A DNA stretch of 50,558 nucleotides from contig PWRF01000223.1 in assembly GCA_003556325.1 (NCBI GenBank), positions 1 through 50,558 of the forward strand, read 5' to 3'. The notes beneath the pieces were generated by a model that ran no database searches, was not told the DNA's origin, and saw only the letters and a list, made by a program, of their open reading frames with translations. Of this stretch, positions 6,936 through 38,138 are shown one piece after another. Position 1 is the first letter of the stretch; every line of letters starts with the position of its first letter. Source of the stretch: Bacteroidales bacterium. Lineage in GTDB: Bacteria; Bacteroidota; Bacteroidia; Bacteroidales; UBA7960. The position numbers and the translations under genes were made by a program.

Positions 6936-7220
6936 TGGTATATGCTATTCGTTATTTTTTTTGTTCTCATAATCACCCAGGCAACCACAAACCCACAATC
7001 CCGTATCGCTTCGCTACCAGGACTTCACTGCCGCTCAGCATCAACCCTCTTCCGGCAATCTCTCTACTTTGTGTCTAACAATCGTGATTTCTACTTACAA
7101 AAAGTGTAAACCTATTTCAGGACGAGACACACTTCTTTTTCCTGCCTGCTTCTTACTACCATCATATCTCCCAAAACCCTCCCCCGGTTATCACCCTACC
7201 CACAACCTTCACCAACCTCC

Positions 7221-7300
7221 GACCTTTCGACTTTTCGACCTTTCGACTTTTCGACTTTTTGTCCTTTTGTCTTTTTGTCCTTCCTCCCTTCCCTCCTTCC
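7221..7300 (+). repeat. Tandem octamer array, 10 units (GACCTTTC/GACTTTTC x5 decaying to GTCYTTTY and YCCCTTCC)
   Basis: Read directly: gacctttc gacttttc gacctttc gacttttc gacttttt gtcctttt gtcttttt gtccttcc tcccttcc ctccttcc. It lies in the divergent intergenic region between the O-antigen-ligase and CapD-like genes. Confidence 0.85.
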
Positions 7301-11239: not shown

Positions 11240-11878
11240 CTACTCTTCCGGATCTTTCAGCCGGAACCACGTATGGTGTTCGTTTTGCCCCATTTCAACG
11301 AGGCCGGCGACCATCATGTCGACGATCACATTTTCGGCGAGGTTGCGGGGCAGCCCGGATAGTTTTACAAAGCTTTTCAGGGTGATGGTGGGATGTGTAC
11401 TGAGGTATTGCATCAGCGTCTTCTCGTTCTCGGAGTATTGGATCACCGTGCCTTTGGGGCTTTTCTGGCGTTTCCAGTATTTGATCATGATGGTGTCGGC
11501 CAGGATGTTCTGGTCGCCCACGCGAACCCACGCCATCCAGCGTCCGTTGTCGGTCTTGGCATATACGGGCTTGACCTGCGCCCGTGGCACGTCTACCTCC
11601 AGCACCCGCCTGCCATCGATGTTCCAGTGCCGGAAGGCAAAGTCGATCTCCGGGCGGCAATACATCGTCGCCGCCGCCTCCATCATATGATACTCCTCCT
11701 CCGTGCGGATCCCGGCGATCACCCCGTTGTCCTTCACCCCGATCAGCAACTTTCCGCCATCGGTGTTGGCAAACGCCACAAGGGTGCGCGCAATCTTCCT
11801 GCTGTCGTTCACCTGGAACTTGAAGTCCTGCTGCTGATGCTCCCCCTGGAGAATGAGGTTTTTGATGTAGGTGGACAC
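11240..11878 (-). CDS. AlbA_2 (Schlafen-type) DNA-binding domain protein with a C-terminal winged-helix
   Basis: The ORF contains LILQGEHQQQDFKFQ....IARTLVAFANTDGGKLLIGVKDNGVIAGI, the AlbA_2 signature. The track ORF start (11968) is a TTG inside the octamer array. I prefer the in-frame GTG at 11878, just before STYIKNLILQGE, but the start remains uncertain. Confidence 0.7.
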   Translation of the reverse strand: MSTYIKNLILQGEHQQQDFKFQVNDSRKIARTLVAFANTDGGKLLIGVKDNGVIAGIRTEEEYHMMEAAATMYCRPEIDFAFRHWNIDGRRVLEVDVPRAQVKPVYAKTDNGRWMAWVRVGDQNILADTIMIKYWKRQKSPKGTVIQYSENEKTLMQYLSTHPTITLKSFVKLSGLPRNLAENVIVDMMVAGLVEMGQNEHHTWFRLKDPEE

Positions 11879-11905
11879 GGGTTTATGTTTTTTTTGTACT
11901 GCAAT

Positions 11906-12271
11906 AATGTGCTGTTGGGTTAATGTGCTAATGTGCCGAATTAATGTGCCAATGTGCCAATGTGCCAATGTGCTAATGTGCTAATGGAAGGGTCCGTTTG
12001 GCAATGTTCAGCGGTAATTTCATGATCGTTGTTTTTTATTTACATGCGAGGCTGCGTCATTCCGAACGCGAAGCGGAGGAGCCTCTGCAAATCATCCCCC
12101 GATCATGGCACGCACCAATACACCCATCAAACTGACCCGTCCAAATTTTTTTGCCACTTTTTTGGGTTAATAATTGACTTTTTGTTAATCATATTTTTTT
12201 CAATTCACCTTCATTAGCACATTGGCACATTAGCACATTGGCACATTAGCACATTGGCACATTAGCACATT
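11906..12271 (+). repeat. Octamer-TIR element copy A: left array (AATGTGCY)n 11906-11985, divergent core, right array (RGCACATT)n 12212-12271
   Basis: Read directly. The first ~75 nt of the core (ggaagggtccgtttggcaatgttcagcgg...atgcgaggc) match copies B, C and D, and the rest is unrelated. The right array ends 1 nt before the purF stop codon. Confidence 0.85.
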
Positions 12272-14176
12272 TTAATACGCCCTCTCCGTCTTACCCTCAA
12301 TGTAGTTGATAAACGACCGGCACGCCACTTTGTTCCCTCCCGGGGTGGGATAATCGCCTGTGAAATACCAGTCGCCCCGGTGGTTGGGGCATGCAGCGTG
12401 GAGGTCTTCTATGGTTTGATAAACCACGTCGACATGGGCCTGTACGTCGGGCGGGTGCAACATCTCCGCGATCTTGGCAGAGATCTCATCCGCACAGAAC
12501 GGCTGGTATATGCTTTTAACGGCGTTTTCAACTTCTTCTACGGGCTTTTGCAGCTGTTCTTTACAGGCAAGATACACCTCGTTGATCACGTGGCCCATGC
12601 CGCGTTCTTTGAGCAGCTGCATGGCGGCGCGGAATGCGATAAAGTCGCCCAGCCGGGTCATGTCGATGCCGTAGCAATCCGGGTATCGTATCTGGGGTGC
12701 GGAAGAGGCCACGATGATATGTTTTGGGCCAAGGCGGTCGAGCATCCGGATGATACTCTTTTTCAGGGTTGTGCCCCGCACGATGCTGTCGTCGATAACC
12801 ACCAGCGTATCCTGTCCGCGGCGCACCACACCATAGGTAACGTCGTACACGTGGGCTACCAGCTCGTTGCGCTGCTTGTCGCGGGTGATGAAGGTGCGCA
12901 GCTTGGCATCCTTCACGGCGATCTGGTCTACCCTCGGACGAAGTGCCAGGATCTTCCGGAGGGCTTCCGGGTCCGTCCGTCCTTCCATATGCAGGATGCG
13001 GTCTTTCTTGATCTCATCGCAGAAGTCGTGCAGCCCCTCCATCATACCCTTAAACGCGGCGATTGCGGTGTTGGGGATATAGGAGAATATGGTGTTTTCA
13101 AGGTCGTGGTGAATGCTTTTCAGGAGCCTGGGAACCAGCCTCCGCCCCAGGCGCTTCCGCTCCTGGTAGATATCGGCATCGGTACCCCTTGAAAAATAGA
13201 TGCGTTCGAAGGAACAGGCGGCTCTCTTTTCCCGGGGCTTGCACTCCATATCGAGCACCCGGCCGTCGCGCTTTACGATAACGGCGTTGCCCGGGCTGAG
13301 CTCCCGGATCTCCTCCAGCGGGACGTTCAGGGCGGTCTGGATGGCAGGTCGCTCGCTGGCGGCAACAAATACCTCGTCGTTCTGGTAGTAGTACGCCGGA
13401 CGGATACCCACCGGGTCGCGCATGATGAAGGCGTCGCCATGGCCCACCATGCCGGCTACCACATAGCCTCCGTCCCAGTATTTGCTGGCGTTCGACAGCA
13501 CGTTGGCAAGGTCGATGTCGCGTGCGATAAGCGGCGAGATCTCTTTTTTGGTGTACCCTTCCTTTTTGAACTTCCGGTAGAGGTCTTCGTTCTCGTCATC
13601 AAGGAAGTGGCCCATCTTCTCGAGGATGGTAACCGTGTCGCTGGTCTCGCTGGGATGCTGCCCGATGTTTACCAGGCTGTTGAAGAGTTCATCCACGTTG
13701 GTGAGGTTGAAGTTTCCGGCGATCATCAGGTTTTTCGACATCCAGTTGTTGGCGCGCTGAAAAGGGTGGCAATATTCCAGATCGTAACGGCCGAAGGTGC
13801 CGTATCGCAGGTGGCCAAGGAAGAGCTCGCCGGTGAAGTTCAGGTGCTGCTTCAGCCACTCCGCATCCTGTAAGCGGCCCGGGTGCCCTTTTGTGGCAGC
13901 TTCAATGTCGGCATGGATACGTTCGAAGATATGCTGGATGGGGTTGTGCCGGTTGCTCCGCAGGCGGTTCATATAGTTCGCGCCCGGAGGCATGTCGAAC
14001 TTGATACAGCCCAGCCCCGCCCCATCCTGGCCGCGGTTGTGCTGCTTCTCCATCAAAAGATAGAGCTTGTTAAGCGCGTAAAAGGCCGTCCCGTAATGAC
14101 TGACGTAATACTCCAGGGGCTTGAGCAGGCGCATCAGCACAACGCCGCACTCGTGTTTGATCGGTTCACTCATCAC
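12272..14176 (-). CDS. purF: Amidophosphoribosyltransferase, long Bacteroidota form
   Basis: 634 aa. The N-terminus has KHECGV (the Ntn Cys nucleophile), followed by a class-II glutamine amidotransferase region and a PRTase motif (LVVIDDSIVRGTT). Confidence 0.9.
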   Translation of the reverse strand: MMSEPIKHECGVVLMRLLKPLEYYVSHYGTAFYALNKLYLLMEKQHNRGQDGAGLGCIKFDMPPGANYMNRLRSNRHNPIQHIFERIHADIEAATKGHPGRLQDAEWLKQHLNFTGELFLGHLRYGTFGRYDLEYCHPFQRANNWMSKNLMIAGNFNLTNVDELFNSLVNIGQHPSETSDTVTILEKMGHFLDDENEDLYRKFKKEGYTKKEISPLIARDIDLANVLSNASKYWDGGYVVAGMVGHGDAFIMRDPVGIRPAYYYQNDEVFVAASERPAIQTALNVPLEEIRELSPGNAVIVKRDGRVLDMECKPREKRAACSFERIYFSRGTDADIYQERKRLGRRLVPRLLKSIHHDLENTIFSYIPNTAIAAFKGMMEGLHDFCDEIKKDRILHMEGRTDPEALRKILALRPRVDQIAVKDAKLRTFITRDKQRNELVAHVYDVTYGVVRRGQDTLVVIDDSIVRGTTLKKSIIRMLDRLGPKHIIVASSAPQIRYPDCYGIDMTRLGDFIAFRAAMQLLKERGMGHVINEVYLACKEQLQKPVEEVENAVKSIYQPFCADEISAKIAEMLHPPDVQAHVDVVYQTIEDLHAACPNHRGDWYFTGDYPTPGGNKVACRSFINYIEGKTERAY

Positions 14177-14205
14177 CTATGCGTTGGTAAAATGCAAAGG
14201 TACGG

Positions 14206-14447
14206 TTAATGTGTTAATATGTCAATGTGCCAATGTGCTAATGAAGGGTTTCGGATATAAGATGAGTCTTTCCCTTTGTTTGCAGCTGACAGGTGGTTTT
14301 AGCGCGTGCCGGGATGCTATATCAGGAGCTTGTTTTATAGAGGTTCTTCCGCCCCGTATTTAAATGAAAAACAATGACCAGGAAAACACCTGCTGAACAT
14401 TGCCCAAAGGACCCTTCCATTAGCACATTGGCACATTAGCACATTAG
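14206..14447 (-). repeat. Octamer-TIR element copy B, inverted relative to copies C and D
   Basis: The arrays are at 14206-14246 and 14418-14447. The reverse complement of the core aligns by eye with the cores of copies C and D. It lies between the purF start and the add stop. Confidence 0.85.
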
Positions 14448-14451
14448 AAAA

Positions 14452-15564
14452 TTAACCCTGTTCCGCATCATAGCTGTTTATCAGCTCAATGGTCTTTTGT
14501 TTGGCGTCGCGCAGGAACCACTTCTTGTATTCGAAGGGGATGAATGCGGACTTGATGCCGTTGATGACCAGGTCGAGGATGTTTTGCGGGGTGAGTTCGA
14601 AGTGTTTGTAGGCCAGGTGGTATTCGTCGGTCATCGTGGTGAGGGTCACCAGGCGGTTATCGGTGTTCAGGGTGGCGCGCAGGCCCAGGTCGAGGTAAAA
14701 CTTAAAGGGGTGCGACTCCATGGAGCGTGCGGCTTTGGTCTGGACGTTGCTCGAAAGGCAGATCTCAAGCGGGATGCGGTGGTCGTTCACGTAGTTGAGC
14801 AGGTCGCCGTCCTCCTTGAGGCGTGTGCCGTGCCCGATACGGTGGGCGCCGCAGTAGTGCAAGGCCTGGTGGATGCTGTTGGGGCCATATGCCTCGCCGG
14901 CGTGGATGGTCACGTTAATGTTGTTTGACAGGATGAGGTTGAAGGACTCCAGGTGGTCGCGGGCGGGATAGTTGTACTCGGCGCCGGCCAGGTCGTAGCC
15001 CACCACGCCCCTGTTCTTGAAGGCAACGGCAAGCTCGGCCATCTGCATACTGACCTCCGGGGAAATGTTGCGGATGCCGCATACGATCACACCGCACTTG
15101 ATACCGAAGTCGCGCTCGCCATCCTTTAACCCCTCGATAACCGACTCCAGGATGGCGGTCACGGGCAGCTTCTTCTGGGTGTGCAGGATGGGAGAATATC
15201 GCACCTCGAAGTATTGGACATTCTCTTTGGCATTGTCTTCGACCAGCTCGTAGGCGGCCCGGTAGAGCGACTCTTCGGTCTGCATCACCTTTAAAGTGAG
15301 GTCAAAGGTCTTGAGGTAGTCGTTGAGCGACTCGTGATCCTTGCCGGGCTGCAGCTTTTTCTCAAGCTTTTTCAGCGTATCCGCACCGATGTCAACACCG
15401 TCTTTTGAGGCCAGCTCGAGGATGGTTTCCATCCGCATCGAGCCATCGAGGTGCACGTGCAGGTCGGTCTTGGGCAACTTCTCAAAGAAATCACGGTTGA
15501 AAGGCTTTGTTGGGGTTTTCAGGTCGGTATCGTGGGAGTAGTATATTTCTTTTTGTTTCATCAT
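14452..15564 (-). CDS. add: Adenosine deaminase
   Basis: Metal and catalytic motifs are present: DLHVHLDGS, HAGE, RIGHG, LNTDN. The track start at 15570 is a TTG, and the first ATG is at 15564. Confidence 0.9.
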   Translation of the reverse strand: MMKQKEIYYSHDTDLKTPTKPFNRDFFEKLPKTDLHVHLDGSMRMETILELASKDGVDIGADTLKKLEKKLQPGKDHESLNDYLKTFDLTLKVMQTEESLYRAAYELVEDNAKENVQYFEVRYSPILHTQKKLPVTAILESVIEGLKDGERDFGIKCGVIVCGIRNISPEVSMQMAELAVAFKNRGVVGYDLAGAEYNYPARDHLESFNLILSNNINVTIHAGEAYGPNSIHQALHYCGAHRIGHGTRLKEDGDLLNYVNDHRIPLEICLSSNVQTKAARSMESHPFKFYLDLGLRATLNTDNRLVTLTTMTDEYHLAYKHFELTPQNILDLVINGIKSAFIPFEYKKWFLRDAKQKTIELINSYDAEQG

Positions 15565-15588
15565 CGACAATGGTTTTGAAGTGTAGTT

Positions 15589-15855
15589 AATGTGCTAATG
15601 TGTTAATGTGCCAATGTGCTAATGTGCCAATGTGCTAATTAAGAGTCCTTTGGGCAATGTTCAGCAGGTGTTTTCCTGTTCATTGTTTTTCATTTAAATG
15701 CAGGGCGGAAGAACCTCTTCAAAACAAGCTCCTGATATAGTATCCTGGCACGCGCTAAAAGCAAAGAACCTATCTGCTGCAAACAAAGGGAAATACTCAT
15801 CTTATATCCGAAACCCTTCATTAGCACATTGGCACATTAACACATTAGCACATTA
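15589..15855 (+). repeat. Octamer-TIR element copy C
   Basis: The left array is at 15589-15639, the core at 15640-15818 and the right array at 15819-15855. It lies between the add start and the fructosamine kinase stop. Confidence 0.85.
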
Positions 15856-15897
15856 CATAATAATACGTTTTTCCCGGCAAATTGTTTCACAGACGGC

Positions 15898-16785
15898 CTA
15901 CGCAAAGCGGCGCAGGATGTTTTTCACCTGTCCCGGGTATCCTCCGCCGAAGAGGTTTACGTGCACCATCAGCGGGTAGAGGTTAGCGATCTCTGTGCCT
16001 TCCTGCCAGCCTTTGTCGAGGGGATAGTGCTCGTTATAGGCATCATAGAAGGCGGCGCTGAAGCCTCCGAACAGCTTACTCATGCCCAGGTCCATGTATC
16101 GGTGGCCGTAATATACCGCCGGGTCGATGATCACGGGCTCTCCCTCCTCCCCTGTCATGTAGTTGCCGCCCCAAAGGTCGCCGTGCAGCAGGGCAGGCGG
16201 CTCTTCCGGGAAAAAGTCCGTAACGTAGCGGTAAAACTTCTCAAACAGGGTGCTCAGCTCCTTCCCTGCCCTGCCGTTGTCGCGAGCGAGCTTCAGCTGT
16301 GCTTCCAGACGCTCGGAGATGAAAAAGGAGATCCAGTCGTCGTGAGTACGGTTGCCCTGTGGCAGGCTGCCGATGTAGTTGTCGTGATCGAGCCCGAACC
16401 GGCCGTCATCCGGCTGTTGCTGATGCATCCGGGCCAGCCCTTCTCCAAACTCCTGCCAGAAACCGGACTTTTGGGCTGCCGGGGCTATATACTCCAGCAC
16501 CAGGATACTTTGGTTGTTCGTCTCCCCGTGGCCAATGACGGCGGGCACCTTAAGGCATCCGGCGTCCTCCAGCAGCTGCAGCCCCCTGGCTTCGGCCTCA
16601 AACATCCCCGGGTAGTGCGAGGCAGAATTGTATTTCATGAAAAACCTTCCCTTGTCCGTCTCCACCTGCTGCGCATCGTTGATGCAACCGCCCCCGATGG
16701 GCTTCATTCCTGTAATGGTGACAGGCTCTCCCAGGGAGCGACTGATGATTTCGGCTATTTGGTCTTGTATTTGGCTTTGTGGCAT
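15898..16785 (-). CDS. Fructosamine/ketosamine-3-kinase family protein
   Basis: 295 aa with GGGCINDAQQVETDKGRFFMKYN and HGDLWGGNY, both typical of the family. Confidence 0.9.
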   Translation of the reverse strand: MPQSQIQDQIAEIISRSLGEPVTITGMKPIGGGCINDAQQVETDKGRFFMKYNSASHYPGMFEAEARGLQLLEDAGCLKVPAVIGHGETNNQSILVLEYIAPAAQKSGFWQEFGEGLARMHQQQPDDGRFGLDHDNYIGSLPQGNRTHDDWISFFISERLEAQLKLARDNGRAGKELSTLFEKFYRYVTDFFPEEPPALLHGDLWGGNYMTGEEGEPVIIDPAVYYGHRYMDLGMSKLFGGFSAAFYDAYNEHYPLDKGWQEGTEIANLYPLMVHVNLFGGGYPGQVKNILRRFA

Positions 16786-16790
16786 GGTTT

Positions 16791-16825
16791 TGTGAGTTGT
16801 CAGTTGTGAGTTATGAGTTGGAGGC
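16791..16825 (+). repeat. Tandem heptamer array (TGTGAGT-like x5) with a short inverted partner at 16905-16916
   Basis: Read directly: tgtgagt tgtcagt tgtgagt tatgagt tggaggc. It begins 6 nt beyond the fructosamine kinase ATG. The segment gctcacaactca at 16905-16916 is the reverse complement. Confidence 0.7.
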
Positions 16826-17153
16826 TCATTTGAGGGTTAGGGGTTGTGAATTTGGGGTTATAGCCATAAAACGGTCAACGTCATTTAGGCATCGCCTATC
16901 GTCCGCTCACAACTCAAAGCTGATTCCCTGCAAATCTACGCTGCAGCCCAAATTCCTCAACAATGTGGCGCATCAATAGCGTATCGCTGTTTGGATGTTC
17001 GTCCTTCTGTGAGCCTTGTTGCAACTATTGCTAAGCGATTTACCATAGAGCAACGATTTGAAAATGATTTCTAAATTTTGTGAGTTAACTTCCTGATTAT
17101 GTGATGATGCTTACGGCAAACTAAAAACAACGCAACGCCAGTGGTCGCGTATT

Positions 17154-17204
17154 TAAAAAAATGGTAATCAACCGGGTGGGCTTTAGCCCAAGCGACTGAT
17201 TACC
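17154..17204 (-). terminator. Putative intrinsic terminator downstream of tRNA-Ala
   Basis: On the minus strand the sequence is GGTAATCA-GTCGCT-TGGGC-TAAA-GCCCA-CCCGGT-TGATTACC followed by ATTTTTTT. It starts 22 nt after the tRNA 3' end. Confidence 0.55.
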
Positions 17205-17225
17205 AGGCATATATTGGGGTTAAAT

Positions 17226-17302
17226 TGGTGGAGAATACCGGGCTCGAACCGGTGACCTTTTGGCTGCCAGCCAAACGCTCTAGCCAACTGAGCTAATTCC
17301 CC
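17226..17302 (-). tRNA. tRNA-Ala (anticodon GGC) with encoded CCA
   Basis: The minus strand reads GGGGAAT TA GCTC AGTTGGCTA GAGC G TTTGG CTGGCAG CCAAA AGGTC ACCGG TTCGAGC CCGGT ATTCTCC A CCA. The cloverleaf folds cleanly, the G3:U70 alanine identity pair is present, and the total length is 77 nt. Confidence 0.95.
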
Positions 17303-17493
17303 GTGTTTTGGTTGGCAAAATTAATATCTTTTCTTATTTTCACCAAAAAAATCTTTGAAAACGGCACATCCTGCCAGCCCATGCAGCCCATTTAACACTA
17401 TGAACACCAGCAACCCGCATACCCACTGTAACACACCCCTTAACCCCAATCATCACCAACCCATCAACCCATAACCCCAACCCCAAACTTTAT

Positions 17494-17820
17494 CTTGATC
17501 TTAATCTTATCCTCAACCTTAACCTCAACCTAATCTTAACCTCAATCTTAACCTCAACCTAATCTCAACCTCAATCTCAACCTCAATCTCAACCTCAATC
17601 TCAACCTTAATCTTAACCTCAATCTCAATCTTAACCTCAACCTAATCTTAACCTCAACCTCAATCTTAACCTTAATCTTAACCTCAATCTCAACGTTAAC
17701 CTTACTCTCAACCTTAATCTCAATCTTAATCTCAACCTCAATCTCAACGTTAACCTTACTCTCAACCTTAATCTCAATCTTAATCTTAACCTCAACCTTA
17801 ACCTCAACCTTAATCTTACC
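17494..17820 (+). repeat. Hexanucleotide microsatellite (AAYCTY), about 55 units, abutting the thpR ATG
   Basis: Read directly. Units are mostly 6 nt with occasional 5-nt units. An exact higher-order duplication of a 52-nt segment is offset by 54 bp (17681-17732 = 17735-17786). The plus strand is almost G-free from about 17400 to 17820. Confidence 0.9.
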
Positions 17821-18378
17821 ATGAAACGCCTCTTCACCGCCATTCACATCCCCCTTGCCGATCCCATAACCGAGGCCCTTGAGCACTTTCAAGCCGTACT
17901 GGCCGGTGACAGGATCAACTGGGTGTCGCCTACAAACATACACATCACCCTGAAGTTTTTTGGAGACACGCCCATGCGCGATGAGCCACCTATTAAAAAC
18001 GCCCTGGAGGCAGCCGGAAAGGAAGCAAAGCCCTTTACCTTCCGCATCAGGGGTTGCGGTACTTTTGGCAACCCCCGTATGCCCCGTGTCATATGGCTGG
18101 GCATCGAGGAAGCGGACGGACTCATCCGGCTCTATGATACGATCAACAAACACCTGAAGCCCTTGGGCCACAAGCCTGACAAGAAAGTCTTTGTGCCGCA
18201 CCTCACCATTGCGCGCGTCAAACACCTTGCCAATTACGCCGGACTTGAGGAGTTGCTTGCCGAATATGCGGAAGAAGACTTCGGGGAGGTCACCGTGGAT
18301 CGTTTTACCCTGTACCAGAGCATACTGAAGCCCACGGGTCCGGTATATCGCCCGGAATTCAATGTGCTAATGTGCTAA
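17821..18378 (+). CDS. thpR: RNA 2',3'-cyclic phosphodiesterase (2'-5' RNA ligase family, ThpR/LigT)
   Basis: 185 aa with two HxTx motifs (HITLKF and HLTIAR). The last 6 codons and the stop (NVLMC*) are encoded by the octamer array of element D. Confidence 0.85.
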   Translation: MKRLFTAIHIPLADPITEALEHFQAVLAGDRINWVSPTNIHITLKFFGDTPMRDEPPIKNALEAAGKEAKPFTFRIRGCGTFGNPRMPRVIWLGIEEADGLIRLYDTINKHLKPLGHKPDKKVFVPHLTIARVKHLANYAGLEELLAEYAEEDFGEVTVDRFTLYQSILKPTGPVYRPEFNVLMC

Positions 18379-18703
18379 TGTGCTAATGTGCTAATTAAGA
18401 GTCCTTTGGGCAATGTTCAGCGGTGTTTCCTGTTCCTTGTTTTTCATTTTAATGCGAGGCGGAAGAACCTCTTCAAAACAAGCTCCTGATATAGTATCCT
18501 GGCACGCGCTAAAAGCAAAGAACCTATCAGCTGCAAACAAAGGGATATACTCATCTTATATCCGAAACCCTTCATTAGCACATTGGCACATTGGCACATT
18601 AGCACATTAGCACATTGGCACATTGGCACATTAGCACATTGGCACATTAGCACATTAGCACATTGGCACATTGGCACATTAGCACATTAGCACATTAGCA
18701 TAT
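18361..18703 (+). repeat. Octamer-TIR element copy D
   Basis: The left array is at 18361-18395 (4 units), the core at 18396-18572 is near-identical to copy C, and the right array at 18573-18703 has about 16 units. It lies between the convergent thpR and lutB genes. Confidence 0.9.
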
Positions 18704-18705
18704 TA

Positions 18706-20076
18706 TTAACCCATTTTTTTTCTAAAACTTTCCACCACCTTCGGGAGTGTCCGGCGGGGGCCCCAGGCTTTTTTAAGGAACAGGCCGGCAAACAGGTTTT
18801 TTATGCCTGGCGGGGCTTTATCGAGGCGGGAGGCCTTGCTCATAGTCATCTTATAGGCTTTTATGCCCCAGCGTTCGGTGCGCGGGGGGAAGGCGTTGCG
18901 CACGGCCAGGCGCCGGTTTTGCAGCAGCTGGTGGTGCAGGTCGATGCCGGCGGGACATACGTCGGTGCAGCGTCCACAGAGGCTTGAGGCATAGCTCAGG
19001 TGGATATATTCTTTCAGCTGCCCGCTCAGGTGCGGACTGATGACAGCTCCGATGGGCCCGCTATATACTGTTCCGTAACTGTGTCCGCCGATGTTCTTAT
19101 ATACAGGACAGGCATTCAGGCAGGCCCCGCAGCGTATGCATGACAGCGCCCGGCGTTGCGGTATGGCCGCCAGGAGGTTGCTGCGCCCGTTGTCGAGCAG
19201 GATCACGTACATCTCTTCCGGGCCCTCTTCTTCGCCTGCAGCCCGCGGCCCGCTCACCAGGGTGTTGTATGCCGACATGTCCTGACCTGTGCCGTGAACG
19301 GCAAGCAAAGGCCAGAAAAGGTCAAGGTCCCCGGGCGAAGGGATCACCTTTTCTATCCCGGCCACCACGATGTGTACCCGGGGGACGGAAGCACAAAACA
19401 GGGCATTGCCCTCGTTCTCCGTAAGAGCAATAGATCCCGTGCCGGAGACCAGAAAGTTGGCCCCGGTGATCCCGGCACCCGCCCGCAGAAAACGCTCCCG
19501 CAGATGAGGCCTGACAAAAGATGCGATCTCCTCAGGCGCAGACTCCGGGGGCATGTCGTATTTCTCATGAAAGATCTTTGCAACATCAGCCGCTGAAAGA
19601 TGCATGGCGGGCGTGACAATATGATAGGGCTTGTCATCAGATATCTGTACTATAAACTCACCCAGGTCCGTCTCCGTGCATTCTATCCCGTTTTTTTCAA
19701 GGAAGGTCGTAACCCCTACCTCTTCGGTGGTCATCGATTTTGACTTTACCACCGATCTGATGTACTGCTTTTCCAGGATGTCAAGGATGGCGTTGCGGGC
19801 ATCAGCGGCATCGCGGGCCCAGATAACCTTTCCGCCACGTGCTGTAAACTGCTGCTCAAACGTTTTTAAATGGTCTTCAAGGTGTTCAAGCACAGAATGC
19901 TTTTTCACCGCAGCACGCTGCCGGGCAAGAGCAAGGTTGGCATAAATGCCAAGTCCCTTCTCAAAAGAACGGTCGTAACACGAAATGTTATAAGCGATCT
20001 TTTTTCGGTGTTCTACGTCAAAAGCCTTATCCTCACTGGCCTGCTGGAATGCCTGGTATATTTCCCGTGTTGCCAT
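18706..20076 (-). CDS. lutB: Lactate utilization protein B-like iron-sulfur protein (LUD domain + 2x[4Fe-4S])
   Basis: 456 aa with CIRCGACLNACPVY and CGRCTDVCPAGI cluster motifs. The N-terminal region is LUD/DUF162-like. Confidence 0.8.
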   Translation of the reverse strand: MATREIYQAFQQASEDKAFDVEHRKKIAYNISCYDRSFEKGLGIYANLALARQRAAVKKHSVLEHLEDHLKTFEQQFTARGGKVIWARDAADARNAILDILEKQYIRSVVKSKSMTTEEVGVTTFLEKNGIECTETDLGEFIVQISDDKPYHIVTPAMHLSAADVAKIFHEKYDMPPESAPEEIASFVRPHLRERFLRAGAGITGANFLVSGTGSIALTENEGNALFCASVPRVHIVVAGIEKVIPSPGDLDLFWPLLAVHGTGQDMSAYNTLVSGPRAAGEEEGPEEMYVILLDNGRSNLLAAIPQRRALSCIRCGACLNACPVYKNIGGHSYGTVYSGPIGAVISPHLSGQLKEYIHLSYASSLCGRCTDVCPAGIDLHHQLLQNRRLAVRNAFPPRTERWGIKAYKMTMSKASRLDKAPPGIKNLFAGLFLKKAWGPRRTLPKVVESFRKKMG

Positions 20077-22193: not shown

Positions 22194-22349
22194 GATCTTT
22201 CCAACTGTCTCGCCTGCCAACAGGAGACCGCTGAATACCAAAAAGCACCAGGGCAATGCACAAACAATGCCGGCTTTCTGTTATTCTACTCTGACAGACA
22301 AAATTCTGGCAGACAATGACAGCATAAATCATTTTTTATTATTCAAAAC

Positions 22350-22382
22350 AAAGGACACGAAAATTCATTCTTCGTGTCCTTT
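22350..22382. terminator. Bidirectional stem-loop between the convergent LytTR regulator and rnr genes
   Basis: AAAGGACACGAA (22350-22361) pairs perfectly with TTCGTGTCCTTT (22371-22382) around a 9-nt loop. A T-rich tract follows on the minus strand. Confidence 0.55.
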
Positions 22383-22398
22383 CTGTTTAATCCTTCTG

Positions 22399-22477
22399 CC
22401 AACATCCAACCGCTAATAGCCAATAGCCAACCGCCAATAGCTAATAGCTAATAGCCAACAGCCAATAGCCAGCAACC
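22399..22477 (+). repeat. Tandem heptamer array (AAYAGCY), about 10 units, directly after the rnr stop
   Basis: Read directly: ...ctaatagccaatagccaaccgccaatagctaatagctaatagccaacagccaatagcc... The period is 7. Confidence 0.85.
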
Positions 22478-32299: not shown

Positions 32300-32740
32300 A
32301 AGCCCTTGGCAGGAGGGCAATGACACAGACTCCCATACCCCCGGGATGGGGCTAAAAGCAGCGAGCAAGGAAGACATTGATCATTAACAAAGGGTAAACA
32401 GACAACCCAGGTCCCCCGGCAGAAGGGCAATGACACAGACTGCCATACCCCCTGGATGGGGCTAAAAACAACGAGCAAGGAAGACATTGATCATTAACAA
32501 AGGGTAAACAGACAACCCAGGTCCCCCGGCAATAGGGCAATGACACAGACTGCCATACCCCCGGGCCGGGGCTAAAAACAACGAGCAAAAAAGACAGTTG
32601 CTTAAAAAACAGTGAACACACAATGCAGCACCCGGCAGGAAGGTAAATAAACAGACAACCCAGGTCCCCCGGCAGGAAGGGCAATGACACAGATTCCCAT
32701 ACCCCCGGGATGGGGCTAAAAGCAGCGAGCAAAAAAGACA
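32300..32740 (+). repeat. Tandem repeat of about 110 bp, 4 units (periods 110, 110, 144)
   Basis: The anchor GGGCAATGACACAGA recurs with its C at 32318, 32428, 32538 and 32682. The third unit carries a ~34-bp insert that resembles the methyltransferase 3' end/junction (aaaaaacagtgaacacacaatgcagcacccggcagga versus aaaaaacagtaaacccacaatccaagcccttggcagga). Confidence 0.9.
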
Positions 32741-36919: not shown

Positions 36920-36924
36920 TCCTT

Positions 36925-37034
36925 CTATTTGTACTCCAGCGGCTCGACCTCGCCGTTTAGTACCATGAGGCCGTTCATTGCCAGGGCGTGCATTTCATCT
37001 TCTCCGGGGTAGACATAGACGGGGCCAATGTGGC
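36925..37034 (-). pseudogene. Duplicated 3'-terminal 110 bp of buk (gene fragment)
   Basis: 36925-37034 aligns with 37062-37171 (the true buk 3' end including the stop). There are 5 mismatches by eye, and the copies are separated by 27 bp. Confidence 0.8.
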
Positions 37035-37061
37035 AATACAGCAGGCAACCCATCTTTTCAT

Positions 37062-38138
37062 CTATTTGTACTCCAGCGGCTCGACCTCGCCGTTTAGTAC
37101 CATGAGCCCGTTCATTGCCAGGGCGCGCATTTCATCTTCTCCGGGATAGACATATACGGGGCCAATGTGGCGAACCCGTTTTGATACAGCCTCAACGAAA
37201 GGTTTTCCGTATGCAATACCGCCGGTGAGCAGGATAGCATCCACTTCGCCTTCCAGTACTGCCGACATGGCGCCGATCTCTTTGGCTACCTGGTAAGCCA
37301 TGGCATCCTGTATAAGAATGGCTTTCTCGTCGCCGGCCTTGGCCCTCTTTTCAACCTCATAGGCGTCGTTGGTGCCCAGGTAGGCGACCAGCCCACCCTG
37401 CCCTGTGATCATCTTCCGGATCTCTTCCTCGCTGTATTTCCCGCTGAAACACATTGTCACGAGTGCGCCCGCCGGAAGGGTTCCGCTGCGCTCAGGGGAA
37501 AAGGGCCCTTCGCCATCAAGCGCCTGGTTGACGTCGATCACACGGCCCCGGTAATGCGCGCCCACACTGATACCTCCGCCGAGATGAGCCACGATCAGAT
37601 TTAACGCCTCATACTTGTTGGAGACCGACTTCGCATGTTGCCGCGCAATAGCTTTCTGGTTCAGCGCATGGAAGATCGAGATGCGCTCAAACTCAGGATG
37701 CCCGGAGATCCGGGCGATGTCGTCGAGCTCATCTACAACAACCGGGTCGGCAATATAAGCACGGGCCCCGGGAACAGAACGGGCAATATCGTGGGCGATC
37801 AACCCCCCCAGGTTGCTGGCATGCTGCCCCAGGACACCCACCTTTAAGTCTTCCGTCATGGGCTCGTTAACCTCATAAACGCCCGAAGGAATAGGCCTTA
37901 TCAAACCGCCGCGGCCAACGATCACCTTGATGGTGCTGACCTCAAAAGAGGCACTCTCCAACTCGTCCAGGATAATCTGCTTGCGAAACGCATACTGGTC
38001 CGTGATCTTTTCGAAACCGGCAAGGTTTTCGGTTGAATGTTTGATGTTCTTCAGAAAAACCTCTTTGGTGTTGTCAAACACCGCGATTTTTGTAGACGTG
38101 GACCCAGGGTTAATGGCCAGGATCAAATTTTCTTCCAT
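37062..38138 (-). CDS. buk: Butyrate kinase
   Basis: 358 aa with the N-terminal ILAINPGSTSTKIAVF. The fold is ASKHA-type, and the gene is paired with ptb. Confidence 0.95.
   Translation of the reverse strand: MEENLILAINPGSTSTKIAVFDNTKEVFLKNIKHSTENLAGFEKITDQYAFRKQIILDELESASFEVSTIKVIVGRGGLIRPIPSGVYEVNEPMTEDLKVGVLGQHASNLGGLIAHDIARSVPGARAYIADPVVVDELDDIARISGHPEFERISIFHALNQKAIARQHAKSVSNKYEALNLIVAHLGGGISVGAHYRGRVIDVNQALDGEGPFSPERSGTLPAGALVTMCFSGKYSEEEIRKMITGQGGLVAYLGTNDAYEVEKRAKAGDEKAILIQDAMAYQVAKEIGAMSAVLEGEVDAILLTGGIAYGKPFVEAVSKRVRHIGPVYVYPGEDEMRALAMNGLMVLNGEVEPLEYK

Follow-up and report, generated by a model that had tools for sequence, protein, structure and literature searches.

Candidate foldback-type intergenic repeats with inverted octamer-array arms at gene ends in a Bacteroidales genome

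Four intergenic elements, E1 to E4, in a 50,558-nt stretch of Bacteroidales DNA (contig PWRF01000223.1; hereafter the window) are tentatively interpreted here, at a little under even confidence, as members of a lineage-specific family of foldback (hairpin) intergenic repeats that would act as hairpins at the RNA level. They appear to be a variant of known intergenic repeats, and searches of Rfam, of plasmid and phage sequences by BLAST and of the literature returned no prior description, so that within this reach the proposal of the first-pass annotation that the family is uncatalogued holds.

Results

All four loci carry a left arm formed by a run of AATGTGCY octamers and a right arm of (RGCACATT)n (Table 1), as the first-pass annotation had described. 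The two-unit pattern AATGTGCYAATGTGCY, allowing up to 2 mismatches, gave 42 matches, every one within E1–E4, against 0.10 expected from shuffles, and the TRF scores of the arms range from 43 to 210; the arms are tandem runs of a unit in the 5–11-nt range beyond chance length. The arms, inverted repeats of 37–45 nt with 82–100% complementarity, give each short, non-coding element terminal inverted repeats like those of a MITE. The outer 37 nt of the E3 arms are 100% complementary, with a rare AATGTGTT/AACACATT unit at mirrored positions of both arms, and the outermost GGTTAAT/ATTAACC of E2 are likewise complementary. The inverted repeat continues ~10 nt beyond the arrays into the core (AATG(G)AAGGGT/ACCCTTCATT). 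AATGTGCY itself is not self-complementary, and pairing requires two opposed arrays; its most conserved positions are A2, T3 and G6. Copy number differs from arm to arm, as had been noted (the last right arm, then put at 131 bp, measures 133 bp by TRF), and arrays range from 1 to 27 units without apparent constraint. One copy, E2, is indeed flipped relative to E1, E3 and E4.

Table 1. Coordinates of the elements and associated features in the window
Feature	Position	Strand	Description
E1	11906–12271	+	Left arm ~11905–11986, AATGTGCY units with two interruptions (TRF)
E1 core	11987–12211		
E1 right arm	12212–12271		7.5 units (TRF); equals (CATTAGCACATTGGCA) x3.75
E2	14204–14457	-	Arm ~14205–14243; core 14244–14417; arm 14418–14447 (TRF)
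E2 degenerate unit	to 14457		Extends the arm across the add stop codon (14452–14454)
E3	15588–15855	+	Left arm 15588–15639 (6.5 units); right arm 15819–15855 (4.6 units) (TRF)
E3 core	15640–15818		
E4	18361–18705	+	Left arm 18361–18395 (4.4 units); right arm 18573–18705 (16.6 units, 133 bp) (TRF)
E4 core	18396–18572		
A module (CAAACAAAGGGAAAnnCTCATCTTATATCCGAAACCCTTCATT)	15780–15822	+	Adjoins the E3 right arm
A module copies	18534–18576; 14240–14282	+; -	In E4; in E2
B module (TTCAGCAGGTGTTTTCCTGTTCATTGTTTTTCATTT)	15660–15695	+	Small hairpin and T-run; in the inward direction from the neighboring arm it may resemble a terminator (weak evidence)
B module counterparts	14362–14397; ~18416–18449; 12007–12041	-; +; +	The last with a different stem apex
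C module, stand-alone	7050–7132	.	Without AATGTGCY arms; same as the loop of the sister genome's E4 ortholog
Candidate purF -7 box (TACCTTTG)	14195–14202	-	4 nt past the E2 arm, 21 nt before the purF ATG

With ORFs called heuristically, the elements fill the AlbA_2/purF, purF/add, add/fructosamine-kinase and ligT/lutB spacers, in agreement with the earlier view that they separate almost every gene from AlbA_2 to lutB. E1 is bounded by the purF stop codon (12272–12274) and the AlbA_2 start (~11881), the left arm of E4 codes for the last ligT residues and provides the ligT TAA stop (18376–18378), and the lutB stop (18706–18708) comes right after the E4 right arm; purF, add and ligT each have a stop codon that an arm touches or overlaps. 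All four copies lie within 7 kb, with none in the other 43 kb of the window, which would be a strange distribution for a device used at gene ends in general. The sequence TACCTTTG, kept in the relatives L119, L120 and L324, fits TAnnTTTG, the Bacteroidetes -7 promoter consensus; it is the only such box near the elements and lies outside E2. No transposase or integrase domains were found in window ORFs of at least 90 aa, again as first reported, nor was a RAYT (IS200/IS605-like Y1 transposase) or an RHH or ParB-type gene seen in the window. The only nearby DNA-binding domains are those of AlbA_2 and of a LytTR regulator 3 kb away, and AlbA_2 adjoins purF in array-less relatives too.

The centers had been called unique, which proved wrong. 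The cores of E2, E3 and E4 are 90–96% identical (E3 versus E4, 95.5%; E3 versus E2, 90.4%), and that of E1 shares with them the first ~65 nt (~61–68 nt at ~82%) and the final ~20 nt only. The copies differ by core indels of 1, 2 and 5 nt, and because these break every frame the cores are non-coding. The near identity of three cores, together with mechanical ORFs of 62–93 aa that overlap them, might suggest that the core is a small RNA or small protein gene and the arrays merely its flanks. We consider this very improbable: besides the broken frames, a search of Rfam 15 matched only a tRNA-Ala and, with the threshold relaxed to E ≤ 5, still none of the elements, orthologous sites either lack the core or have another in its place, and the single -7 box is outside E2. 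The loops are instead mosaics of reusable modules (A, B/B', C and D), some of which recur alone. The B module consists of a 5–6-bp stem and TTGTTTTT(C/T)ATTT. The A module occurs at seven sites in a sister MAG at 86–97% identity, some with a single array, and the loop sequence around it is mostly not alignable across copies and genomes. A ~27-nt sequence adjoining the arrays is conserved in ten copies from two genomes, and element ends also occur alone and in 54-bp higher-order duplications.

The sister soda-lake MAG, B1Sed10_143R1 (contig L324), is syntenic, with proteins 83–96% identical. The first-pass annotation had proposed a search for empty sites and target-site duplications; the outcome spoke against recent insertion, as arrays are present at 4/4 orthologous spacers, with different loops. 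At the E3 and E4 sites the A module is shared and keeps its side, but the loops otherwise differ; the E1 site holds a half-element, and the E2 site, the emptiest, retains only TGATGTGTTAATTAACACATTAACC, a minimal perfect palindrome with one unit per arm; a clean empty site was absent in this MAG. Because all sister sites carry arrays with different loops, the arrays predate the cores. E3 aligns with its own sister ortholog only over ~71–77 nt (arm plus A module), whereas it closely matches its paralog E4. A hexamer array has 55 units here versus about 5 in the sister, and in more distant relatives (58–78% aa identity) the purF–AlbA_2 spacers measure 55–75 nt and are without arrays.

These comparisons bear on whether the elements are non-autonomous transposons of the MITE or foldback type, moved whole by a transposase whose gene lies elsewhere in the genome and which recognizes either the arrays or the subterminal ~27-nt sequence. 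Several features fit the MITE reading offered by the first-pass annotation, namely the small size, the inverted arms, the lack of coding capacity and the near-identical copies, one of them flipped; the conserved ~27-nt sequence can be added, the solo ends and end duplications recall decayed transposon ends, and eukaryotic hAT and Foldback transposases bind subterminal repeat arrays. We nevertheless regard transposition as unlikely. None of the four copies has a target-site duplication (flanks: E1, CAAT/TTAA; E2, GGTT/AGAA; E3, AGTT/ACAT; E4, ATTC/ATTA), the window holds no transposase, the sister sites are all occupied and the apparent empty one keeps its 1+1-unit palindrome, the cores are mosaic, most AATGTGCY arrays of the phylum are single rather than paired, and array ends anchored on stop codons are not expected from random insertion.

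AATGTGCY arrays matched at least 117 loci, and Bacteroidota appear in 76/80 record titles among the matches listed, including the isolates Capnocytophaga gingivalis CCUG 13096 and Hymenobacter terricola 3F2; a control octamer matched 62 loci, 15 of them Bacteroidota. Viral contigs gave 15 matches versus 1, 2 and 4 for three controls, and the enrichment over composition-matched controls is at least 4-fold (4–15-fold) in Bacteroidota and viral contigs. The sense-strand start of an array lies at a median of 1–3 nt from a stop codon: a sense-strand stop is found ≤5 nt from the 5' end in 42/59 cases and a convergent stop ≤5 nt from the 3' end in 3/54, and in about 20 cases the array's own TAA supplies the stop. 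An inverted partner is present on the inner side of 17–20/100 arrays and on the outer side of 0–2/100; viral contigs contain tight left-arm/loop/right-arm hairpins after ORFs. Stop-codon polarity may be general to such arrays, since a control octamer sharing GCYAA also shows it, if more weakly (15/39 versus 3/45). We found no description of arrays that, as they appear to here, start at stop codons across a phylum.

The same survey raises the question of whether the arrays have a function at all or are a neutral by-product of a strong 7–8-nt slippage bias in Bacteroidota with occasional inverted duplication, tolerated only in the dispensable DNA that separates a stop codon from the signal after it. 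In 820 kb of Bacteroidota sequence, TRF listed 190 rows of period 7 and 322 of period 8, with very diverse units, about 140 of the 322 being AATGTGCY arrays that had been searched for; an unbiased 986 kb yielded 70 rows of period 6–9 (68 after merging overlaps). The abundance of such arrays in intergenic DNA, the free variation of copy number between arms and between sister genomes (the hexamer array among them) and the tendency of generic arrays to abut stops as well (11/61 sides ≤5 nt) are in keeping with neutrality. We would still give this reading a modest chance only, because the same unit accompanies hundreds of independent genes from distant orders with 4–15-fold enrichment, strand polarity is strong, both E3 arms carry a rare unit variant at mirrored positions, and the A module is conserved within loops that mostly cannot be aligned.

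We also considered that the arrays are double-stranded DNA sites for a conserved Bacteroidota protein, such as a polar transcription roadblock, a nucleoid protein or a ribbon-helix-helix-type repressor, with the inverted pair as a two-sided version. The enrichment across the phylum and in viral contigs, the conserved A2, T3 and G6 and the strict orientation relative to gene ends are compatible with this, and TATCACA units in the sister MAG resemble the WATCACW heptads to which the omega repressor binds, which we treat as a lead only. This seems rather unlikely, as no candidate DNA-binding gene is linked to the arrays (AlbA_2 and the LytTR regulator being the only ones near), an 8-bp period would place successive sites on different helix faces, unit number is unconstrained, and polarity on the sense strand is equally explained at the RNA level. 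A plasmid-style centromere or operator is disfavored because there are hundreds of loci across a phylum. That short-read assemblers created the arrays at low-complexity repeats, a caveat raised by the first-pass annotation, is scarcely credible: such arrays challenge assemblers, which may report too few or too many units, but the same architecture recurs at syntenic sites of an independent MAG, in isolates, in viral contigs and in assemblies that, by their names, were built from long reads.

The whole E3 element folds into a ~40-bp stem, with a folding energy of -100.3 kcal/mol and a z-score of -7.7. An intrinsic terminator has a G+C-rich hairpin with a U-tract directly behind it; here the arm stem is long and AT-rich, and no strong U-tract follows it. 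The modules carry small, weak, inward-facing hairpins followed by T-runs. The region has as many terminator-like structures as expected from shuffles, and the scan flags E3 only. Because the B-module T-runs of E1 and E3 face the wrong way for the upstream genes, the elements, if terminators, would be leaky or orientation-independent.

Discussion

REP/BIME elements of Enterobacteria and Pseudomonas form RNA stem-loops that stabilize upstream mRNA or attenuate read-through. A REP/BIME-like or terminator reading had been put forward for E1–E4, and as a way of working it fits best, given arms that start at stop codons and finish just short of the purF -7 box, the ~40-bp stem, and the small inward-facing hairpins with T-runs in the modules. 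E1–E4 are likewise extragenic and non-coding, located at 3' ends, between cistrons and inside operons, with inverted copies flanking short conserved linkers in a mosaic, and their copies are homogenized within a genome. As a family assignment the reading fails. The REP unit is an imperfect palindrome of ~35 nt, within a range of ~20–40 nt, whereas in E1–E4 a non-palindromic octamer forms a hairpin only through opposed arrays and the arms are hypervariable in length and anchored on stops with strand polarity. We place E1–E4 outside the REP family because the unit is non-palindromic and no RAYT gene was seen in the window.

DUS/USS sequences of Neisseria and Haemophilus are over-represented and often occur as inverted pairs just after ORFs, doubling as terminators. 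E1–E4 resemble them as a short, lineage-specific, over-represented sequence with inverted pairs downstream of genes, but DUS/USS are single 9–12-mers rather than tandem arrays, and these Bacteroidota are not known to be competent. Foldback (FB) elements of Drosophila and other eukaryotes share the long inverted repeats made of short tandem repeats, the unequal and variable arms and the variable or absent center, an arrangement that E1–E4 display. FB elements are, however, eukaryotic; they duplicate their target sites and have partners that encode a transposase. No duplication was found at E1–E4 and no transposase in the window, and in the sister genome the orthologous sites already carry arrays. 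Plasmid centromeres and RHH iterons differ in that no binding-protein gene is linked in the window and more than 100 array loci are spread across the phylum.

Long simple sequence repeats have units of 5–11 nt (Mrazek et al. 2007, as cited in PMC4679880), and TAACTGA heptamer arrays are known from cyanobacteria and Beggiatoa (MacGregor 2015, PMC4679880). The likeness lies in intergenic tandem arrays of 7–8-nt units far beyond chance, with slippage as the proposed origin, one unit common to unrelated lineages including some Bacteroidetes, and a non-random orientation to ORFs. Most TAACTGA arrays immediately precede a start codon, and inversion is seen in 1/170 sets (PMC4679880), whereas AATGTGCY arrays begin at stops and have 17–20% inverted pairs, here enclosing shared modular cores. 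The BrickBuilt MITE of Porphyromonas gingivalis, from the same phylum, is similarly small, non-coding, multicopy and always intergenic, combines tandem and inverted repeats and has a proposed effect on transcription (PMC4596501). It has a 23-nt internal minisatellite with small inverted ends and sits 49–591 nt from coding sequences (PMC4596501), while in E1–E4 the tandem repeats are the ends, the middle is a mosaic of unique sequence, and the distance to stop codons is 0–4 nt.

In the foldback intergenic repeat that we tentatively favor, the inverted arms (AATGTGCY)n/(RGCACATT)n lead through the short inner inverted repeat AATG(G)AAGGGT to a non-coding modular loop. The array end that begins AATGTG abuts a gene boundary, typically the stop of the gene that reads AATGTGCY in sense, and because array 5' ends abut stop codons the full element may be viewed as two 3'-end cassettes placed face to face. 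A transcript across the element would allow the arms to pair into a 35–45-bp duplex, an intercistronic or 3'-end hairpin that could block exonucleases or offer an RNase III-type cleavage site; with the inward small hairpin and U-tract modules it might insulate or terminate in both directions. Promoters, such as that of the candidate purF -7 box, would lie directly outside the far arm. Arm length would shift by slippage, and homologous recombination through the arrays, to which the patterns point as the means of spread, could swap, lose, homogenize or flip loops between copies, so that cut-and-paste transposition would be unnecessary for the observed pattern. The arms are a local case of a Bacteroidota-wide octamer array, and the sequence comparisons argue, for the most part directly, that these arrays are old residents of their spacers that change by slippage and recombination, rather than recent MITE insertions.

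Architecture of the octamer-armed elements

The four intergenic elements of the window, E1 to E4, share one plan, in which a left arm of (AATGTGCY)n and a right arm of (RGCACATT)n (octamer AATGTGCT as DNA and AAUGUGCU as RNA) enclose a core, or loop. Inspection of the sequence from 11500 to 19200 together with Tandem Repeats Finder (TRF) confirmed the period-8 arrays of the first-pass annotation at all eight arm positions, the left blocks all lying on the + strand and the right blocks on the opposite one. When up to two mismatches were permitted, the two-unit pattern AATGTGCYAATGTGCY occurred 42 times, always within E1–E4, against 0.10 predicted by dinucleotide shuffling, and by this excess (42 vs 0.1) the octamer arms qualify as long simple sequence repeats (unit of 5–11 nt). 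The arms hold 3.8 to 16.6 units, close to the earlier estimate of about 4 to 16, and the right arm of E4, first put at 131 bp, spans 133 bp by TRF. Arm-to-arm pairing extends over 37–45 nt at 82–100% complementarity, unit variants are mirrored in both arms of E3, and inverted symmetry reaches ∼10 nt inward past the arrays (AATG(G)AAGGGT ... ACCCTTCATT).

The centers had initially been described as unique but proved to be homologous: over ∼178 aligned nt the E3 core is 95.5% identical to that of E4 and 90.4% identical to that of E2 (reverse-complemented), and E1 has its first ∼61–68 nt (82%) and last ∼20 nt in common with the others. The cores differ by indels of 1, 2 and 5 nt and, because these break the frame, a protein-coding role was ruled out. 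Reusable stretches of loop sequence are referred to as the A, B and C modules, of which A and B adjoin the arms. The E1 core contains an inserted GC-rich mini-palindrome of type GTCATTCCGAACGCGAAGCGGAGGAGCCTC, which also occurs in intergenic spacers of related MAGs and appears to represent a small repeat family of its own. A search of the window with Rfam returned only a tRNA-Ala gene, the elements being unmatched both at gathering thresholds and when the cutoff was relaxed to E ≤ 5.

Coordinates of the elements, their modules and neighboring or related repeats (window positions unless a retrieved locus, L, is named; sister, soda-lake MAG B1Sed10_143R1)
Feature	Position	Description
E1	11906-12271 (+)	AlbA_2/purF spacer; sister site a half-element, single array and A module
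E2	14204-14457 (-)	purF/add spacer; sister site only TGATGTGTTAATTAACACATTAACC, one unit per arm, loopless
E3	15588-15855 (+)	add/fn3k (fructosamine kinase) spacer; sister array begins at identical flank position, then A module; rest of loop shorter, unrelated
E4	18361-18705 (+)	ligT/lutB spacer; sister site (ligT 3' end) with both arms and A module on matching side; remaining half-loop is C module, unlike window E4
A module hairpin		GGATATA/TATATCC, then CTTTGTTTG
B module hairpin		AGCAGG/CCTGTT, then TTGTTTTTCATTT; in E1 different apex, same base pairs
Mini-palindrome, GTCATTCCGAACGCGAAGCGGAGGAGCCTC type	12040-12090; L118 2100-2140; L336 870-910	E1 core; related-MAG spacers
tRNA-Ala gene	17226-17302	Rfam match
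C module copy	7050-7132	No octamer arms; 85% identical to loop of sister E4 ortholog
Three different short arrays	7220-7300	CGACYTTT, TTTTGTCC, CCTTCCCY, after the C module copy; polysaccharide-biosynthesis gene downstream
Hexamer array	17488-17818	331 bp, ∼55 units (CTCAAC/CTTAAC/CTTAAT), no G on + strand; ends 2 nt before ligT ATG
Heptamer array	22349-22471	GCCAATA/GCTAATA; shares GCYAAT with the octamer
Canonical hairpin and T-run terminator	22349-22385	Order: RNase R-like gene stop (22481, - strand), heptamer array, terminator
110-bp tandem repeat	32308-32596	2.6 copies, 93% identity; overlaps 129-aa ORF without Pfam match
137-bp tandem repeat	36924-37171	1.8 copies, 96% identity; overlaps 3' end of acetate-kinase-like gene (37062-38138, - strand)
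Inverted pairs of other units	L135 11001-11093; L143 13573-13649; L127 1763-1839	Other Bacteroidota

Gene surroundings

Pfam analysis of all ORFs of at least 90 aa assigned the genes around the elements to AlbA_2, a purF-like amidotransferase, adenosine deaminase, fructosamine kinase, LigT and LutB, with RNase R, MnmG and a SusC/SusD pair farther along, all ordinary Bacteroidota chromosomal genes. Among these ORFs there was no transposase or integrase, in agreement with the first reading, and no small DNA-binding partner. AlbA_2 was considered as a cognate binder and rejected, as it adjoins purF also in array-free relatives. The spacers are wholly occupied by E1–E4: the E1 arm immediately adjoins the purF stop TAA (12272-12274), a degenerate unit of E2 contains the add stop, and ligT coding runs two units into E4, where a TAA of the array is the stop codon.

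The sequence TACCTTTG, 4 nt past the end of E2 and with the purF ATG 21 nt downstream, fits the Bacteroidetes -7 consensus TAnnTTTG, and no box of this type was present ahead of add, AlbA_2, ligT, fn3k or lutB. Promoters borne by the cores were rejected, given that the A module, for all its TTTG-like spacing, is missing the consensus TA, that a sigma-70 scan stayed at shuffle level, and that the only consensus box found, that of purF, lies outside E2. Resemblances to DnaA boxes, to sigma-54 elements (-24/-12), to the pause consensus G-10/Y-1/G+1, to 8-nt PUF sites and to repeated AUG-UGC-UAA mini-ORFs were likewise discarded, each being a poor match or probably fortuitous.

The window is generally full of other 6- to 8-nt arrays. 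The hexamer array ahead of ligT has only ∼5 units at the corresponding site of the sister MAG, so its expansion is recent. The 137-bp repeat seems to have arisen when the end of the acetate-kinase-like gene was duplicated in tandem.

Orthologous spacers in related genomes

A junction pattern (array unit followed by AATG(N)AAGGGT) recovered many loci of B1Sed10_143R1, as well as two contigs from the CSSed10_288 bin. One sister contig, L324, is syntenic with window 11368-18395 (proteins 83–96% and DNA 82–93% identical). The comparison of filled and empty sites proposed at the outset found sister arrays in all four orthologous spacers, and no target-site duplication was visible at any copy, the palindromic TTAA, TA and ATT targets following no consistent pattern. 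At the sister E3 site the arm-plus-module unit is repeated three times as a 54-bp higher-order repeat, and at the E2 site TGATGTGTTAATTAACACATTAACC is an almost perfect palindrome of 28 nt; the stop codon lies within it, and the -7 box seen in the window comes next. Other sister loci comprise paired arms around loops of 48–205 nt, solo arm-plus-module ends, and arms of up to 27 units; over ten copies the best-conserved part is the ∼27 nt adjoining the array (CTCATCTTATATCCGAAACCCTTCATT).

In distant relatives (58–78% amino acid identity) the purF-AlbA_2 spacers are array-free and 55–75 nt long, and in some of them a different octamer array, AACCYATC, lies upstream of purF ahead of the shared -7 box. 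Metagenomes searched with a 16-nt pattern from the core gave chance matches only; at least 120 loci matched, and none of those listed had the core or the arrays. The two contigs binned as "Methanobacteriaceae archaeon CSSed10_288" (L336, PWMT01000163.1, and L346, PWMT01000062.1) carry E1-type and related elements at 85% identity over 149 nt and are probably mis-binned Bacteroidales DNA.

On our reading of these alignments, arrays occupied the four spacers before the window and sister genomes split, and the loops are mosaics that were replaced, lost or copied between loci. Paralogs of one genome resemble each other more than orthologs do, a pattern of concerted evolution. Copying, exchange of loops and the flipped E2 could all result from homologous recombination through arrays; as the two arms are reverse complements, such recombination would work in either orientation.

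Octamer arrays across Bacteroidota

At least 117 stretches of (AATGTGCY)3 were found in a collection of species-representative genomes. Among the matches listed, 76 of 80 record titles were Bacteroidota, spread over many orders and including the isolates Capnocytophaga gingivalis and Hymenobacter terricola. The composition-matched control (AAGTTGCY)3 gave 62 stretches, 15 of them in Bacteroidota; it also forms numerous arrays within single genomes of other phyla (a Gemmatimonadaceae MAG, Exilibacterium tricleocarpae and a Buchananbacteria MAG; L465-L526). Viral contigs held 15 AATGTGCY arrays vs 1, 2 and 4 for three control octamers, also 3' of ORFs and in some cases as tight hairpins with 13-nt loops. 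Units flanking the selected arrays gave the logo R-A-T-K-T-G-C-Y, with A2, T3 and G6 most constant.

Read as AATGTGCY, the arrays are strongly oriented with respect to heuristically called ORFs: the end of the upstream ORF on the same strand lies a median of 1 nt away (within 5 nt in 42/59), vs a median of 94 nt for the end of an ORF converging from the 3' side (within 5 nt in 3/54). A second method placed a stop within 5 nt in 43/77 upstream sense cases vs 4/69 convergent ones. In ∼20 cases the array's own TAA is the stop codon, at offsets of -1, +7 or +15. A recognizable inverted partner within 250 nt was present on the inner (3') side of 17–20 of 100 arrays, compared with 0–2 of 100 for the outer side; left arm followed by right arm thus occurs and the opposite order essentially never, and the possibility raised at first reading, that arrays elsewhere are never paired in inverted orientation, does not hold.

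The polarity may be a broader property of such arrays, since the control AAGTTGCY, which has GCYAA in common with the real unit, shows it in weaker form (15/39 vs 3/45) and generic arrays abut stops above chance. Arrays of 7 and 8 nt with many other sequences are common in Bacteroidota (190 and 322 TRF rows in 820 kb), and an unbiased sample of 986 kb with purF as anchor gave 70 rows (68 arrays once overlaps were merged), inverted pairs of other units included. Such pairs, 20–30 nt apart, were seen in other Bacteroidota including Mucilaginibacter (TCATTAGT/AACTAATG and GTTCATTG/AACCAATG), so array-armed hairpins are not confined to AATGTGCY. Several Bacteroidales MAGs (L008, L036, L054, L071, L101) carry a second, CTGCAG-containing array directly after the AATGTGCY array, for example GACTGCAT or AACTGCAG, a hint that different arrays may follow one another in a recurrent order within a spacer.

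Predicted structure and proposed role

Folding of the full E3 element as RNA, a check proposed in the first-pass annotation, predicts a strong hairpin (-100.3 kcal/mol, z = -7.7). A transcript crossing an element would form a 35–45-bp duplex from the arms. Duplexes of this kind are known in bacteria to stop 3' exonucleases, to be substrates of RNase III and to hinder RNA polymerase. Read inward, the arm-adjoining modules each present a small hairpin and then a T-rich run, in the right orientation for terminating add (E2) and ligT (E4) and the wrong one for purF (E1) and fn3k (E3). Terminator-like structures are no more frequent than in shuffled sequence, and termination as such by the elements is a weak proposition. 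A full element could be viewed as two convergent stop-array-hairpin cassettes, which would form an intercistronic or bidirectional 3'-end structure.

We tentatively speculate, at rather less than even odds, that AATGTGCY arrays are a hitherto unrecognized, Bacteroidota-wide cis-element of gene 3' ends, strand-polar and stop-anchored, on chromosomes and on viral contigs (probably phages of Bacteroidota). A conserved host factor that binds RNA or DNA would read the arrays and so bring about termination, processing or protection of transcripts; the foldbacks of the window would be the bidirectional form of this signal, with their modular loops acting as exchangeable terminator cassettes.

Relation to known repeat families

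REP/BIME sequences are the closest functional analog of the elements and the eukaryotic Foldback element is the closest structural one. The octamer arrays themselves are long simple sequence repeats, as are the TAACTGA heptamers (PMC4679880). BrickBuilt (PMC4596501) is a Bacteroidetes MITE whose tandem repeats are central, whereas in the window elements the tandem repeats form the arms. Each family compared failed at least one of the defining features tested. E3 was unmatched by BLAST against annotated plasmids and phages, and literature on the octamer, on Bacteroidetes repeats of 8 bp (octamers) and on bacterial foldback elements yielded no description; together with the Rfam result, this bears out the original view of an uncatalogued family. 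We rate the elements as belonging among the intergenic palindromic or microsatellite repeats, as a variant for which we found no description.

Implications

The promoters and translation initiation of Bacteroidota differ from those of model bacteria, and to our knowledge the 3' ends of their genes have been little studied. The most interesting lead is the phylum-wide stop-anchored polarity. If true, stop-anchored arrays of one orientation across many orders and viral contigs would offer a handle on how transcripts are ended, processed or insulated. Gene-end annotation would be affected too, since ∼20 stop codons come from the array itself. If functionless, the elements would be a clear bacterial case of foldback repeats that spread and homogenize via microsatellite homology without a transposase. 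They also serve as hypervariable markers. Because arrays occur in cultured carriers, Capnocytophaga gingivalis CCUG 13096 and Hymenobacter terricola 3F2, the question of function is directly testable.
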